From the IMG/VR virus record IMGVR_UViG_3300044724_000096, positions 1 through 29,406 of that record: 29,406 nucleotides of DNA. One strand, 5' to 3'. Under the pieces are notes generated by a model. It had not been told where the DNA came from, ran no database searches, and worked only from the letters and a program-made list of their open reading frames with translations. Shown in pieces: positions 1,068-12,884 of the stretch. Within the stretch, counting starts at the first letter, position 1. The number at the start of each line of letters is the position of its first letter. Both the position numbers and the translations under genes were made by a program. The stretch is from a virus (taxonomy: Duplodnaviria; Caudoviricetes).

Positions 1068-1087
1068 GTTCAAATGTCATGTATTGT

Positions 1088-1140
1088 TCTGGTATCCCTG
1101 ACAGTCGCATGGTGCGGCTGACATTTGCCAAGACAGGAGA
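1088..1140 (+). ncRNA. Candidate structured 5' leader (pseudoknot covering the RBS); possible Mu-gpT-DE-like motif
   Basis: Three pairings: hairpin CAGTCGCA (1102-1109) / TGCGGCTG (1113-1120); outer stem TGGTA (1090-1094) / TGCCA (1126-1130); and CCTG (1097-1100) with CAGG (1134-1137), which overlaps the SD AGGAGA. Confidence 0.5.
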
Positions 1141-1145
1141 TCTTC

Positions 1146-1616
1146 ATGGCTAACTCAACTTTTTCAGGCCCAATCCGGGCAGGGAACATTCGAAATACAA
1201 CAGGAACCACTGTAGGCGAGAACATCGCTAACGTAGGCTACGTTGTAATGATGCAAACACACACAATGGATCTTTCCGGTGGAGCGATTGCAGCAGGCGC
1301 AACCGACATGGTTATTCCAGCGAACTCCAAGATTATTGATTGTATCGTGGACTTGTCTACGGCTGCGAATGCCACCACTAACTTGAGCGTTGGTGATACC
1401 GTTGGCGGGGCGACTACAATTCTTAACGCGCTTGCCACAGGTACAAGTGCGGGTCTCAAGACGGTAACCACACAAGGCGGTGGTACAGGGGAGTGGGCAA
1501 ACACAGGAACGGCGGATCTAAAGCTGACCGTTACTAACAGCGTAGCGACCACGGCGGGTGTAGCTGTGATTACTATTCTGTATGCGCAGGCTTACAACAC
1601 TGTAATCCGTCCATAA
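1146..1616 (+). CDS. Putative capsid decoration / minor virion protein
   Basis: ATG at 1146 follows AGGAGA and is preferred over TTG 1125. The 156-aa protein (MANSTFSGPIR...) is Thr/Gly/Ala-rich, beta-type, and directly follows the capsid gene. Confidence 0.7.
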   Translation: MANSTFSGPIRAGNIRNTTGTTVGENIANVGYVVMMQTHTMDLSGGAIAAGATDMVIPANSKIIDCIVDLSTAANATTNLSVGDTVGGATTILNALATGTSAGLKTVTTQGGGTGEWANTGTADLKLTVTNSVATTAGVAVITILYAQAYNTVIRP

Positions 1617-5526: not shown

Positions 5527-8500
5527 ATGGCTGTTTTAAAGAACAGGGCAAAAATGTCCACCAGTACCACGGGTACTGGTACAATAACTCTGGGTTCTGC
5601 TCTTTCAGGCTACCAAAGTTTCGCTGCGGCAGGAGTTAGTAACGGCGATCAAGTCCGGTACACGATTCAAGATGGTACAAGCTGGGAACTGGGTCTTGGG
5701 ACTTACACGGCTAGTGGGACCACTCTTTCTCGAACTCCTAGCGAAAGCTCAAGTGGAGGCTCGGCAATTTCTTTAAGCGGAAATGCGGAAGTCTTTATTA
5801 CCGCCGCTGCCGAAGATATATTACAACCATCCAATAACCTGTCTGATCTAGCCAATGCGTCCACCTCCCGCACGAACCTTGGCGTAGCTATTGGTTCCGA
5901 CGTACAAGCGTATTCCAGCGTTTTGGACGCCACCACCGCATCCTACACCACCGCGTTAAACACTAAACTTGGTGGTATTGAGACAGGGGCGGACGTAACA
6001 GACGCGGGGAACGTAAATCCGCTTGTAGATGCTCACATAAATGTAAGCGGTGCGAGCAGTGGGCAATACCTTAACTGGAATGGTTCGGATTACGCTTGGG
6101 GCAGCATAGACACCTCCACCTTAATGCCTAAGACAGGCGGTACGTTTACTGGTGATGTTATTTATCAAGGGTCTAACGCCAATATTGAGTTTGATGTTTC
6201 AAACGATGCGATGGAGGTAAAAGACAACGCCAGAATTATTGTCGGTAACGGCGATGATATGATGTTGTATCACAACGGAACCAACTACATTGATTTGTAT
6301 GGGAATACCTATATCAGAAACACCAAGGCAGACAGCTATACGTTTCTGGAAGCGGATAATGGTAGTGGTAGCCCAACTCCATATGTTACTCTTAATGGCG
6401 TTACTGGTGAAGTACAATTATCACACTATGGCAGTCAGAAATTAGCCACAAAAAGTACAGGGGTTCAAACGACAGGCACAGTAAACGTCAACGGCGCTTA
6501 TACCCTACCAACGTCGGACGGTGCGGCGGGAACCGCGCTTGTCACAAATGGTTCGGGCGCTTTGTCTTTTTCTGCGGTTGGCGCAGCACTTTACGATGCA
6601 AACGAAAGCTCCCCTGCTGCCCAGCCAAGTGCTACGGGTGCAAACGCTATAGCCATTGGCGACAGTGCTACAGCTACTTCAGACGATGACGTTGCTATTG
6701 GTATAAACGCCAATGCTACAGCTAATGGTAGTTCTCCTTCTCTCGCGTTAGGTCGTGATGCTAATGCTACTTCCGGCGGTATAGCTATTGGTAACTTTAC
6801 TGATGCCACTGGTACTTATGGTACAGCTATTGGCACTTCCGCAGATGCCACTTCAATAAACGCAAGTGCATTAGGCAACGATGCCAAAGGTGCAGGAAGT
6901 GATGCTGTAGCATTAGGCAAATCACGGGCATCAGGCAGTTATAGTCTAGCAGGAGCTATTGCAAACAACACGTCTAGCTACGGCGCTACTGGTGCATACA
7001 GTGTGGCCTTGGGTTACTTAGCTAAATCCACAGGCTTAAATGCTATGAGCTTTGGCGAAGGTGCTATTGCCTCTGGTAATGACAGCTTGGCTTTGAGTGA
7101 TGCAACGGCGTCAGCAAATAATTCGATTGCTATTGGCGTAGGAGCTTCGGCAAGTCAGTCATCAGCTATAGCTATCGGAAAGAGCGCAAACTCTGCGCAC
7201 GAAAACTCAGTAGCTATCGGCAAAAATGCTGTAACAACTGCATCAAATCAAATTACGCTTGGCGATGCGACTGCAACTGTACGTATTTCAGAAACTTATA
7301 CCCTACCAACATCCGACGGAAGTGCCAATCAGGTGCTTACTACAAACGGCTCAGGTGTAGTTAGCTTCGCAGATGCTGCTGGTGCTGATCTTTATGCTGA
7401 AAACTACGATGGGTCTTCCACCAAACCAACTGCCACTGGCACTAATTCTGTTAGCATTGGGCGGCTCGCAACAGCCTCGGGAGCCACTTCTTTTGCGGCG
7501 GGAAACGGGGCAGAGGCTTCTGGGTTGCAAAGTGTAAGCATAGGTTACCAGCACAGTAGTAATCCAACAGGAGAGGGCGCAGCAAGTTATGGAAGAAACT
7601 CTAATGCGGCAGCGCCATACAGCACAGCGATAGGCGCAGATAGTGTTGCGGCGGGATCAAACAGCTTTGCCACTGCCTTAACTAAATCTTACGCCTCTGG
7701 TGCTTCCAGCTTTGCCGCAGCTATCGCAAGCAACTCATCCAGCTATGGTGCTAGAGGTGCTAATAGCGTAGCTATGGGCTATTTATCCGATACAGGTTCT
7801 TCTGCCAACGGTTCTATTTCGATAGGGTATCAGTCCTCCACAAGTGGTAGCTACAGTATTGCGATGGGGTATCAGAGTGACGCCACGCAAATAGGCGCAA
7901 TTGCCGCAGGTTATTCGGCTACGTCATCAAATGCGTACACTACCGCGATAGGTTATTTTTCCACCGCAAGTGGTAGCTACAGTATAGCCCTTGGTAAATC
8001 AACAACAGCAAGCGGTAATTATAGTACAGCGTTAGGTGCAAGCAGTAGTAGTCAGTCAGCTAATGCAACAGGCAGTGGTTCTGTTGCTATTGGTGGTGCT
8101 TTAGCGTCAGGTAGTAACTCTACAGCTATTAACATAGGCTCCAGTAGCTCTAATGGTGCCACAGGTGCTTCTAGTGTTGCGATAGGTACGTCGGCTAACG
8201 CAAGCCACGCTGGTGCTGCTGCTTTGGGTTATCAAGCAAAAGCACAAAACAATTATGCTCTGGCTCTTGGCGATCAAGCGTTAGCAAACGGCACAAATGC
8301 TACCGCTATACAAGAATCGTATGCAGGTGGAACTGATGCTTTTGCTGCTAACATAACTACTAACTCTTCTGTTTATGGTGCTAACGGCACACAGGGTATT
8401 GCAATAGGAGCGCTTGCGAGAGCGTCAAGCACAGAAGTAATTGCTATTGGGCCTAGTACAAGAACAAATGCTAACGCAGCGGTTGCTATTGGTTCTTACT

Positions 8501-8988
8501 CAGAGGCAATGGCGCAAAGGAGTTTTGCTTTTGGCAGTTACGCTAAATCTGACAGCATAGGTAAATTTGCATTTAGTAACCAACGTCTAAGTTCTGCTGG
8601 GGACTCACAAGCTGGTTTGTTTGTTCTTAGAGCATCAACAACCAATGCAACTGCAACTGTTTTAGCAACTGATAGTGGGGGGACACCTACTACCGAACAA
8701 ATTATTGTCCCTACAGACGCAGCATACGCATTTCACGGCACAATCGTTGCCAAGCAGTCTGGTTCTGCCAATGCAGCGGCATGGAAGGTAGAGGGCTTGA
8801 TCGTAAACAACGGTGGCACGACAACGCTTATTAACTCTGCGACGACAGTGCTAGACAACACCCCATCTTGGGGCATGGCGTTAAGTGCAGACAACACAAA
8901 TAATGCACTAGCAATCACGGTCACTGGTGCAGCCGTTAACATTCGCTGGGTCGCTACGATCCATACATCTGAAGTAACTTACGCCTAA
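5527..8988 (+). CDS. Long tail fibre / adhesin with YadA-like head repeats
   Basis: 1153 aa, Ala/Ser/Gly/Thr-rich. Many approximately 14-aa repeats of type (A/S)xAIGxxAxAxG. N-terminal anchor [11 protein letters not shown] and a distinct C-terminal domain. Confidence 0.85.
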
Positions 8989-9308: not shown

Positions 9309-9545
9309 ATGTCATTAACCATCAATCACCAGACTAACGACATCTCTGCAACTAGCGGGTCCATGACGATTGATGGGAACGCTTTAGGTGCTAGTAGTGG
9401 TGTGTTTTACGAAAACAACACGAACGTAACGGCAGATTACACTATTACGTCTGGCAAAAACGCTATGTCTGCGGGACCAATTACGATAGACAATGGTGTA
9501 ACTGTAACGGTTCCTTCGGGGTCAGCTTGGACGGTGGTAACATGA
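9309..9545 (+). CDS. Small fibre adaptor protein
   Basis: 78 aa made mostly of FYENNTNVTADYTITSGKNAMSAGPITIDNGVTVTVPSGSAWT, a segment I recognise from C-termini of marine phage fibre proteins. Confidence 0.65.
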   Translation: MSLTINHQTNDISATSGSMTIDGNALGASSGVFYENNTNVTADYTITSGKNAMSAGPITIDNGVTVTVPSGSAWTVVT

Positions 9546-10699
9546 CGTTAAAAGTAGATACAATTATCAACGTGGCAGGCACAGGCGCACCGAACATTCC
9601 TGACGGGGTAACTATAGCAGGTACAGCGTTAGCCTCTGTTCCTCAGATGCAGTACGTGGCTTCTGGTTCAGAGCCGTCTTCTCCAGAAAATGGTGAGCTT
9701 TGGTTTAATACGTCAAGCAACGAGTTTAAAATGTACGTTAACGGAGCTTGGTATAAGATAGATGCAACGCCACCACCCCCTCCATTTTTAGGGGACCGAG
9801 GAGTATTTGCAGAGGGGGTTGATGCCTCTGGAAACAATCCCGGACTAATGGATTACGTTACAATATCAACCACAGGGAATGCTACTAATTTTGGGCAGCT
9901 AAGTCTTAGGAATGAGTTTTCTGAAATGGCTGGGTGCTTTGGACTTTCGGGTGATGGTTCGTCAAGAGGAGTGTTTGCAGGTGGTACATTAAACGACAGT
10001 GCTGGGACTAGCAACCAAACAAACGACATCGAATACATAACCTTTGCTACGACAGGTAATGGAACAACTTTTGGCGATTTGACGCAAGCAAGGTACGAGG
10101 GAGCTTCTGTGTCTAGTGGTACTCGTGGTTGTTTTATTGGCGGTGCGTCTATTAATACAGCACAAAACATTATCGACTACATTACTATTGCTACGACAGG
10201 AAACGCTACAGATTTTGGGGATACGTCTGTAGCAACAAGATTTAATGCTGGGGTGTCTTCGGAAACAAGGGGTGTTTACGGCGGTGTTAGCTCTAATGGG
10301 ACTGGCACTTCTTTAGAATATATTACTATTGCTACGACAGGAAATGCTACCAGTTTTGGGGCTCTTACCGTTGGAAGTAGAGCGCGTTTGGCTGCTTGTT
10401 CTGATGGCTCTAGGGGTGTGTTTGCAGGGGGCGATAGTAGCTCAACAGCTACTTCTAATGTAATAGATTACATTACCATCGACACTACAGGAAACGCTAC
10501 AGATTTCGGAGATTTAAACGTTGCTACAGACGAACACGCAGCTTGTGCAAACACAACTCGCGGACTGTTTGGTGGAGGGCATACATCTGTTTATACTAAC
10601 GCTATAAGTTACATAACAATTCAAACCACTGGAAACTCTGCGGATTTTGGCGACCTAACGGTAGCTAGGTTCAAATTAACTGCCGCGTCAGGAGCATAG
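9542..10699 (+). CDS. Beta-propeller-like repeat protein 1 (putative receptor-binding)
   Basis: ATG 9542 overlaps the previous stop (ATGA). Six repeats of about 47-55 aa with consensus IDYITIATTGNATDFGDL...RGVFxGG. Confidence 0.78.
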   Translation: MTLKVDTIINVAGTGAPNIPDGVTIAGTALASVPQMQYVASGSEPSSPENGELWFNTSSNEFKMYVNGAWYKIDATPPPPPFLGDRGVFAEGVDASGNNPGLMDYVTISTTGNATNFGQLSLRNEFSEMAGCFGLSGDGSSRGVFAGGTLNDSAGTSNQTNDIEYITFATTGNGTTFGDLTQARYEGASVSSGTRGCFIGGASINTAQNIIDYITIATTGNATDFGDTSVATRFNAGVSSETRGVYGGVSSNGTGTSLEYITIATTGNATSFGALTVGSRARLAACSDGSRGVFAGGDSSSTATSNVIDYITIDTTGNATDFGDLNVATDEHAACANTTRGLFGGGHTSVYTNAISYITIQTTGNSADFGDLTVARFKLTAASGA

Positions 10700-10701
10700 C
10701 A

Positions 10702-11787
10702 ATGAGTAAGTTTAACACGGCTAACATTGAAAACACTTCGGGTGGTGCTCCTGACTTTAGTCAAGGTCTAACTGTTGGCGGTACAGACATAAATACATTT
10801 GTCAATGCTACTGAGTATTATACAGGATCATCCACGCCTTCTTCTCCTGCAAACGGCGCTGTTTGGTATGACGGCACTAATACAAGGCAGTACGTTAATA
10901 ACGGCTGGTACATATTAACGGTGACGGCCCCACTTTTGTACCTTGGCGCTACGGCGGTGATTAATCTCGGGCAGTCTAAAAATCTTGACTATTACACAAT
11001 TCAAACCGCAGCAAATGCAGCGGATTTTGGAGATTTAACTGTAAGTAGGGGGTCAACAGGTTCTGCGTCAAACAGAATAATAGGTGTCTTTTACACGGGT
11101 GATATATCAGGAACGTCTCAAAACACGATTGACTACATTACATTTGCCACTCCGGGGAATGCCACGGATTTTGGAGACGCTATCGAGGCGTCTCAAAACA
11201 GTGCGGGCATGTCGGATGGGACGTATGGTGTTTTCGGGCCACTTGATGGCTTCTTTAGCTACCACATTGTGTATATTACATTTGCCACCCCGGGCAACTC
11301 TGTTGATTTTGGGAATCCAACTTCTAATCGTCGATATGCTGGTGCCTGTTCTGACGGGTCTAGGGGTGTCATGGCTGGCGGTCAATTCTTCACTCCAGAA
11401 AATACTATCGACTACATCACGATTGCGACTCCCGGTAACGCTACGGACTTTGGTGATCTGACTCAAACAACAGTGTATTTAGCCGCATGTAGTGATGCTA
11501 CTCGCGGAGTGTTTGGTGGGGGCCAACCCGGTAGTAGTGGTACTACCAATGTTATGTCTTACGTCACAATTCAAACTGCGGGAAATGCTACAGACTTTGG
11601 TGATTTAACGGTTGCTAGATCGGGGTTAGCTGCTGCGTCGGATGAAACTCGTGGTACTTTTGCCGGGGGGAATAGTAATTCAAGGGTCATAGACTACGTC
11701 ACGATTCAAACTACGGGCAATGCTACAGATTTTGGTGATTTAAGTCAAAGCCCTAGTTGGAAAATTAGTGGAACATCGGGAGGCTAA
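10702..11787 (+). CDS. Beta-propeller-like repeat protein 2
   Basis: 361 aa, six (I/L)DYxTxxTxGNATDFGD repeats, same N-terminal architecture as its neighbours. Confidence 0.78.
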   Translation: MSKFNTANIENTSGGAPDFSQGLTVGGTDINTFVNATEYYTGSSTPSSPANGAVWYDGTNTRQYVNNGWYILTVTAPLLYLGATAVINLGQSKNLDYYTIQTAANAADFGDLTVSRGSTGSASNRIIGVFYTGDISGTSQNTIDYITFATPGNATDFGDAIEASQNSAGMSDGTYGVFGPLDGFFSYHIVYITFATPGNSVDFGNPTSNRRYAGACSDGSRGVMAGGQFFTPENTIDYITIATPGNATDFGDLTQTTVYLAACSDATRGVFGGGQPGSSGTTNVMSYVTIQTAGNATDFGDLTVARSGLAAASDETRGTFAGGNSNSRVIDYVTIQTTGNATDFGDLSQSPSWKISGTSGG

Positions 11788-11789
11788 AA

Positions 11790-12884
11790 ATGAGCACTCT
11801 AAAAGTAGACTCTATTGAGAACGGCGGTAGCGCGGTAAATTTTACGACCAACGTACAGGCAGGGAATAGCTTTCCTAAACGCGAGTACTATGAGCAAGCG
11901 TATGAGCCTTCGGGGGCAAATAATGCGGCTGTTTGGTACGACACAACGAACAATGAGTTAAAGTTAAAAATAAATGGGTTTTGGTACGGTGTTACAGCCT
12001 CGGCTCCAATGGCTACAGGTAACAGAGCATTGGTTGGCGGGTCAAGCGGCACCCCCGGAAACAATGTTATTCAATACTATGACATTTCATCTACGGGTAA
12101 CGCTGTTGATTTTGGAGATTTATTAGGGAATTTAGAAAATGCACCGGCATGTTCTAGCGGGTCCATAGCTGTTTGGGGTGGTGGACGTTATGGCAGTGGC
12201 TCATTTCATAATGTTATACAGTTTGTAACCATTGGTACTTTAGGAAACGCAGCGGATTTTGGGGACTTAACGGTTGCTAGACAGGGGCTTGGAGCGGCAT
12301 CGAATATATCTAGGGGGCTTTTTGCAGGAGGTTACGACGGTAGTGCTACTGTAAATACGATTGATTTTATTACGTTTCCTACCGCAAATAATGCTACAGA
12401 TTTTGGAAATTTAGATGGCACTTACACATGGCTCACTGGTACGGCAAACCAAGTCCGAGCGCTTTTTAACAAAAGTGGTAGTGCTCCTGCCGAAATAGAT
12501 TATGTAACTATTGATACAGCAGGGAACGCGGCTGATTTTGGGAACTTGACTGTGGCAAGAACTACTACTGTGGGAGCCTTTTCTGACGACACAAGAGCGG
12601 TGTTCGGCGGCGGTTCAAACGCAGGCACTGGCGCAAAATTTAACACAATTGATTATTTTACTATAGCAACCACAGGGAACGCGACAGATTTTGGGGACTT
12701 AACCGCCGCCGCTTCTGGTATAGGAGGGTGCGCTAACGCGACTCGCGGGACATTTAATGGGGGAGTTGTGCCGCAATCGATAAATACAATACAATATGTG
12801 ACAATCCAAACACCGGGCAACGCTACGGATTTTGGAGATTTACTTGCGGGTAGGGGAGCACCTGCCGCGTGTTCGGGAGAATAA
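11790..12884 (+). CDS. Beta-propeller-like repeat protein 3
   Basis: SD GGAGG. 364 aa, starts MSTLKVDSIE, six GNAxDFG repeats. Confidence 0.78.
   Translation: MSTLKVDSIENGGSAVNFTTNVQAGNSFPKREYYEQAYEPSGANNAAVWYDTTNNELKLKINGFWYGVTASAPMATGNRALVGGSSGTPGNNVIQYYDISSTGNAVDFGDLLGNLENAPACSSGSIAVWGGGRYGSGSFHNVIQFVTIGTLGNAADFGDLTVARQGLGAASNISRGLFAGGYDGSATVNTIDFITFPTANNATDFGNLDGTYTWLTGTANQVRALFNKSGSAPAEIDYVTIDTAGNAADFGNLTVARTTTVGAFSDDTRAVFGGGSNAGTGAKFNTIDYFTIATTGNATDFGDLTAAASGIGGCANATRGTFNGGVVPQSINTIQYVTIQTPGNATDFGDLLAGRGAPAACSGE

Follow-up and report, generated by a model that had tools for sequence, protein, structure and literature searches.

The leader of the gene that follows the major capsid gene in this marine phage, a stretch of 60 bases, has a supported fold, drawn from comparison among relatives, in which three GAC strands meet in a three-way junction with one unpaired A each. 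The same comparison shows that the predicted fold overlaps both the Shine-Dalgarno (SD) sequence and the AUG of the downstream gene, and that the element goes with that gene rather than with the capsid gene. Because the junction and an associated pseudoknot cover the ribosome-binding site and start codon, the leader likely shuts off translation of a predicted capsid cement protein, and we consider it very probable that it acts as a translational off-switch, whichever ligand is assumed. A first-pass annotation of this DNA was right in proposing a cis-acting fold that hides the downstream gene's ribosome-binding site. The topology it gave to the masking pseudoknot was wrong: the loop is partnered by the start codon region and not by 1090-1094, and the core is the three-GAC junction.

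The window (the whole 29.4-kb stretch of DNA analysed) is part of a podophage-like genome in which the capsid gene is followed by adaptor, fibre and ejection-type genes, with DNA polymerase A and helicase genes on the opposite strand. The capsid gene (74-985, + strand) encodes the Mu gpT-like major capsid protein of HTVC023P/CRP-901-type podophages, with matches to PF25209 (E 1.6e-11), phrog_371 and Pfam PF10124 Mu-like_gpT (24.8 bits, cut-off 20.1), and its product shares 71% identity with the capsid protein of pelagiphage HTVC023P and 57% with the one of roseophage CRP-901. Farther along, three adjacent genes of 361-390 aa (9527-12884) all match phrog_19111, which suggests a tandem paralog set, and 5527-8988 carries YadA-head repeats. 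Starting 110 nt past the capsid stop and on the same strand, 1096-1148 matches Mu-gpT-DE (Rfam RF03012) over model positions 1-53 of 53 with 73.1 bits (E 1.9e-15, gathering cut-off 49), the sole Rfam family at gathering level in the window. Both consensus helices, CCUG/CAGG and the inner hairpin, are present and the alignment flags no non-standard pair; the window's copy is an ordinary member of this catalogued orphan motif, a membership that the first-pass annotation had proposed.

Relatives were collected in four sets: two by motif pattern (120 loci each, from an estimated 2500 and 4400), one by capsid protein (the 80 best out of 599) and one by nothing but the opening ten codons of the downstream gene (120 loci from an estimated 12000). 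Neither of the latter two sets was chosen by the leader. Loci L001-L120 are left out of all counts, as the pattern spacing used for them excluded the window's own motif; among off-target pattern loci, L018, L040, L058 and L062 hold 2-5 matches spaced 60 or 75 bases apart, in tandem arrays. Capsid proteins are 87-96% identical in the capsid-collected loci (the best 80 of 599) and 56-71% identical in the named relatives. Short-form comparisons use 197 distinct leaders, in which the invariance of P1 and the GAC strands is partly built in by the search patterns, and the gapless alignment A2 holds 95 of the 122 short-form leaders of canonical length. The capsid-protein tree has 147 rows, 99 of them short-form, and includes one mis-picked long branch (L192).

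The junction (1100-1134, +) brings together strands 1100-1102, 1120-1122 and 1132-1134, the G of each GAC pairing with the C of another (G1100-C1134, C1102-G1120, C1122-G1132) and A1101, A1121 and A1133 staying unpaired. Two of these strands lie in the direct CTGACA repeats (1098-1103 and 1118-1123) that had been noticed before and are indeed present; the third GAC, at 1132-1134, had been overlooked. P1 (+) pairs CCTG 1097-1100 with CAGG 1134-1137, a complementarity correctly read from the sequence in the first-pass annotation, and extends across bulged A1138 by pairing 1094-1096 with 1139-1141, thereby covering the SD AGGAGA (1135-1140) of the ATG at 1146. P2 (1102-1120, +) is the 8-bp hairpin 1102-1109/1113-1120 reported earlier, with its one U-G pair at 1105/1117.

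Covariation among relatives, the check suggested alongside that annotation, was examined in A2. There the corrected full model is 92.9% paired, 12 of its 22 pairs vary at both positions, and it exceeds every slid control; its score is 0.226 against 0.101, with 0/500 shuffles as high. P1, whose basic helix is also in the Rfam consensus, is 94% paired in A2 and shows C-G to U-A changes in 10/197 leaders; its extension is 2.51 pairs long against 2.28 when permuted (0/1000), and covers the full SD when read from 1094. Six of the eight P2 pairs vary on both sides in A2, and the many G-U cells there make the + strand likelier to be the RNA.

The junction geometry recurs in leaders picked by the downstream gene alone: 98 of 115 distinct leaders have it, 93 of them with three exact GAC, whereas in ten dinucleotide shuffles 7-13 leaders showed the geometry and 0-1 had at least two GAC. 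In L335, L347, L417, L364 and L377, and also in L322 and L324, closing pairs are exchanged for A-U or U-A, which indicates that the G and C pair; the A is retained. The middle base is A in all three strands of 98/101 parsed leaders, the three exceptions resembling misparses. By eye, the 17 leaders without a fit comprise seven of a third arrangement described below, nine with an imperfect or short P1 and one that is degenerate. Nested folding from 1094 gives P1 and the P3 closing pair near-zero probability, so the case for the junction is entirely comparative.

The loop after the second GAC forms a predicted pseudoknot with the start codon and codon 2 (GCCA 1127-1130 with UGGC 1147-1150, within 1123-1152, +), with U1125-A1152 also possible past a U-U mismatch. 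Across the 197 leaders, complementarity between this loop and the first nine coding bases is 13.19 against 11.20 permuted (0/500), and in A2 the pseudoknot alone is 89.1% paired with 22 cells changed on both sides; nested folding from 1094 pairs the AUG region with probability 0.99. The second codon and the loop change together: Ala2 goes with loop GCC in 137/137 leaders and Gly2 with loop CCC in 57/60, the remaining three being two that pair in a shifted register by eye and one degenerate leader; the loop/codon-2 pair is G-C in 137 and C-G in 57 of the 195 scored leaders. This trait changes at least 25 times on the capsid-protein tree, where 11 independent pairs on well-supported branches agree (sign test p about 0.001), and on the tree of the cement proteins of the window's own family six pairs agree (p 0.03-0.06), although the changes may be cassette swaps rather than separate mutations, which would inflate both pair counts. 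The third base of Ala2 is GCT:GCA 119:5 in short forms, where it pairs, against 28:36 in long forms, where it does not; by these counts, which are uncorrected for kinship, constraint on the synonymous position of the second codon is confined to leaders in which that base is paired. Five short-form leaders (L455, L477, L511, L569, L230) start with UUG, in which the pairing U and G are kept and the first base differs.

The first-pass annotation had instead nested the hairpin in an outer stem. UGGUA 1090-1094 can indeed pair with UGCCA 1126-1130, but the pairing is not conserved among relatives: loop-to-upstream complementarity is 6.44 against 6.40 permuted in the 197 leaders (179/500 as high), and the three of its five pairs that fall inside A2 form in 35.1% of cells (496/500 shuffles as high). 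With both permutations and shuffles at chance, we regard it as a coincidence of the window's copy. There it prevails when folding starts at 1085, and a read-through transcript of this copy might therefore adopt another fold. The folding energy of 1085-1148 is not beyond chance (z -1.49, 14/200 shuffles folding as well).

Signals upstream of the leader suggest that transcription begins after most of that stem's 5' arm. An intrinsic terminator-like hairpin and U-run (1039-1068, +) separates the capsid gene from the leader, and a crude terminator-like pattern, counted without a control, lies upstream of 176/194 short-form leaders. A predicted -10 box, TATTGT (1082-1087, +), follows; a sigma-70 scan of the window did not pick it. 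In 156 of the 197 leaders a TAnnnT hexamer has its end 10-13 nt ahead of the first GAC, the six adjacent 4-nt windows giving 8-48, and 77% have A at the position equivalent to 1094. The start is accordingly placed, as a prediction from sequence, near A1094, which would leave most of the proposed 5' arm untranscribed. Two cultured phages of this group, CRP-901 and CRP-902, according to PMC10149686 have no RNA polymerase gene and rely on host transcription. Contigs from four marine RNA runs span parts of the capsid and cement genes; since contigs can reveal neither start, strand nor level, they carry no weight here.

Between the capsid stop and the terminator (990-1070, +), the window also has a TGn-TAnnnT box, after which come a hairpin bearing UUUCAU and CCUCC, the complements of AUG-AAA and of an SD, and then the terminator. 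The same unit occurs in 11/81 capsid-anchored loci (the window, L243, L244, L249, L253, L254, L256, L257, L258, L260 and L261), with weak SorX matches below gathering score in L258 and L261, and it may represent an optional small RNA, about 65 nt long, directed at ribosome-binding sites; a convincing target was not found within the window.

Leaders of this family come in three arrangements, all of which cover or abut the ribosome-binding site. The short form, which is Mu-gpT-DE itself, places the SD under P1 and the AUG under loop 3, and is carried by CRP-901 and by CRP-902. The long form, found in 77 distinct leaders including those of DSL-LC04 and of cultured pelagiphage HTVC023P, pairs loop 2 with a 5' segment (0/300 permutations) and loop 3 with a stretch whose end lies 9-14 nt ahead of the ATG (72/77; 0/300 permutations), with no pairing between loop and start codon (7.73 vs 8.14 permuted). 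The third, found in seven of the 115 gene-chosen leaders (L343, L346, L348, L368, L403, L416, L424), holds the SD within a true P3 stem-loop with swapped pairs and uses the AUG region as the 3' strand of P1; the helix that is a pseudoknot in the short form is thus P1 here, and the GAC core is kept without a pseudoknot. Rfam scans found no family on the leader in five long-form loci, in a further set of long-form records, or in 20 loci comprising 17 long forms, two third forms and one degenerate leader. The family thus extends beyond the catalogued Mu-gpT-DE, as only one of the three arrangements matches an Rfam family. A fourth GAC stands directly before the ATG in 29/197 short-form leaders, a possible route between arrangements. 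A hammerhead-type permutation was considered and set aside; the supplement to the 2023 permutation paper (PMC10085705) names neither gpT nor capsid.

By a loose pattern, a triple GAC precedes the gene in 73/74 capsid-anchored loci and is kept in all 12 in which over 250 nt separate the gene from the capsid stop, which indicates that the element belongs to the downstream gene and not to the capsid gene. The exception, L249 (2910-3090), has a cement-family gene whose leader lacks the triple GAC, a natural control. In seven loci (L290, L291, L299, L300, L302, L303, L314) an ORF that by eye resembles a GIY-YIG homing endonuclease sits right after the capsid gene and puts about 800-900 nt between it and the leader and cement gene; other small genes occupy this slot in L255, L259, L261, L262, L312, L313, L323 and L324, which makes it an insertion hotspot.

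The gene behind the leader (1146-1616, +; 156 aa) is predicted to encode a jelly-roll capsid cement or decoration protein. Neither Pfam nor PHROGs has a family for its product, no meaningful match to a solved structure came from sequence searches with it or with the capsid protein, and an atlas search returned unnamed viral clusters only. In an AlphaFold2 model (pLDDT 73, with residues 1-30 at only 56-59) the best fold match is Pam1 capsid chain 7eel_H (Foldseek E 8.4e-4; Z 10.2, rmsd 8.0, 128 aligned), followed by the KHP40 trimeric cement 7dou_4 (Z 9.7, rmsd 3.9, 116 aligned) and 8h89_J (Z 8.6). Only 5 of 48161 chains reach Z 8, so far as the model goes placing this single jelly-roll closest to solved cement proteins; the top matches lie within 1 Z of each other and only one is titled trimeric. 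The homolog in DSL-LC04 is annotated 'cement protein', a word absent from the main text of that genome paper. Behind the leaders stand 170 complete proteins of 55-303 aa in roughly 30 unrelated body families (a clustering script gave 43, of which 15 short singletons form two families by eye, so about 30 is nearer), and Pfam and PHROGs gave no function for 25 representative bodies. What these proteins share is only the first ten or so residues, an N-terminal arm MAxTTFSGP[VI] that is short and barely basic; since its codons vary freely, the arm is conserved as protein.

Of the two options raised in the first-pass annotation, autoregulation and a riboswitch, autoregulation is the likelier. A promoter just past the capsid terminator would yield an mRNA that starts at P1, and the P1/P3 part of its fold would be weak unaided, as in translational off-switches; the near-zero probabilities from nested folding fit a fold that needs a stabiliser, yet are also a caution. 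Surplus cement protein, not docked on capsids, would bind and stabilise the fold and so shut off its own translation. A cement trimer would recognise the three-fold junction with its conserved N-terminal anchor arm, present in three copies. As this arm would otherwise be engaged in docking to the capsid, the amount of cement made would follow from the supply of capsids. For lambda gpD and A4 gp25, PMC12002296 describes trimeric cements whose N-terminal arms dock at three-fold axes. The free gene product seems the likeliest stabiliser because a three-fold RNA suits a trimer and the arm is the only protein part shared; even so, we put this autoregulation at slightly under an even chance. More tentatively still, Mu-gpT-DE would be one arrangement of a widespread three-fold operator read by the capsid-docking arms of trimeric cements, and leader plus arm a transferable unit to which abundant ocean phages attach surface domains of unrelated kinds, with copy number matched to the capsid.

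The same translational switch might have another reader, such as the capsid protein or procapsid, a phage scaffold or late regulator, or an RNA-binding protein of the host. From phage to phage the cement bodies are unrelated and the capsid protein is conserved, and a conserved ligand would explain a conserved RNA. Against this, the capsid tree has at least 17 changes between short and long form, always beside a gene with the N-terminal arm, and no candidate regulator was found within the 29.4-kb window, so we think such a reader unlikely, though it fares best among the alternatives to the cement protein. Somewhat less likely again is a structure that needs no ligand and engages the mRNA's 5' end, blocking 5'-3' decay in the manner of an exoribonuclease-resistant RNA (xrRNA) and fixing the translation rate. 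Short and long forms both pair the predicted 5' end and share with flaviviral xrRNA the layout of a three-way junction with a pseudoknot from loop 3 to downstream sequence, and cement mRNA would presumably have to be abundant; however, the seven leaders of the third arrangement keep the GAC core without a pseudoknot, pairing with the start codon is under selection yet unneeded for stability, and no Rfam xrRNA family matches in the window.

A translational riboswitch that senses a small molecule or ion at the three-adenine junction would account for the near-constant central A in all three strands, and an invariant compact core, variable stems and SD sequestration are general riboswitch traits. 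Yet no riboswitch family matched the window or the relatives' leaders that were scanned, and the regulated gene is structural: the motif precedes one structural-gene family in 88 of 90 good junctions, the other two preceding close N-terminal variants. A pattern search of bacterial and archaeal genomes gave 51 matches, of which 41 look like chance and 10 are genuine; the genuine ones are confined to MAG contigs, and eight of them have an adjacent capsid homolog; no genuine copy stands before an unrelated host gene, and the small-molecule reading in the first-pass annotation now appears improbable. The name 'downstream element', the Rfam type 'sRNA', the usual site just after a gpT-like capsid gene and the direct CTGACA repeats 20 bp apart might suggest that the motif serves the capsid mRNA as a 3' element, acts in trans as a small RNA or is a repeat site at the DNA level. 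All of these are very improbable given the terminator and -10-like box that intervene, its movement with the downstream gene past insertions (12/12), its covariation with coding bases of that gene and the G-U cells that favour one RNA strand.

What is new here is a corrected structure, the predicted start-codon pseudoknot, two uncatalogued arrangements and a testable function, so that an orphan RNA motif gains a target gene and a direct test in cultured phage-host pairs, in a phage group described in PMC10149686 as among the most abundant in the ocean. If symmetry-matched autoregulation is true, it would be a new way for phages to balance decoration protein against capsid, and the element a compact natural three-fold RNA junction.

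Mu-gpT-DE is reportedly a motif of Weinberg et al. 2017. Its RF03012 model agrees with our fold in its full-length match, its two nested helices and its place downstream of a gpT-like capsid gene; the model has nine pairs, ends at the AUG and is typed sRNA, and it includes neither the junction's third pair nor the part of P1 that extends across the SD nor the pseudoknot with codons 1-2. The main article of PMC5737381 does not mention gpT; some of these pairs may already figure in its supplement or in the ZWD structure, which has 11 pairs. A full-text literature search for Mu-gpT-DE, over the text accessible to it, found only the CaCoFold work (PMC7657543), whose Table S1 part 1 gives for it only additions of the loop and non-Watson-Crick type; a search for phage xrRNA or autogenous control of a decoration gene found no paper. 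Flaviviral xrRNA, which PMC7603331 describes as resisting Xrn1, Dxo1 and RNase J1, has a three-way junction and a loop-3-to-downstream pseudoknot at an RNA 5' end, as do the short and long forms. Our element is unrelated to it in sequence, has a P3 of a single pair and includes an arrangement without the pseudoknot.

The jelly-roll cements of Pam1 (7eel_H), KHP40 (7dou), GP4 (8h89_J) and BPP-1 (3j4u_H) share the predicted fold and the position after the capsid gene, at 13-20% identity, whereas homologous leaders here precede many unrelated bodies. SAM-II, SAM-V and preQ1 riboswitches sequester the SD in pseudoknots, and resemble the present leader, as a works-like feature only, in being compact pseudoknots whose 3' strand carries the initiation signals; here there is no aptamer model match, the base is a three-way junction, and the gene belongs to the virion rather than to metabolism. 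Autogenous translational operators are represented by the pseudoknots of T4 gene 32 and of E. coli rpsO/S15, the MS2 coat hairpin and P22 scaffold autoregulation. Like them, the present leader sets a structure over its own gene's initiation region, here a conserved one that spans SD and start codon and is linked to that gene, and, if our proposal holds, feedback would in the same way match a structural protein to its assembly site; what would set the present leaders apart is a three-fold symmetric junction, realised in three arrangements, with a cement gene as its target.
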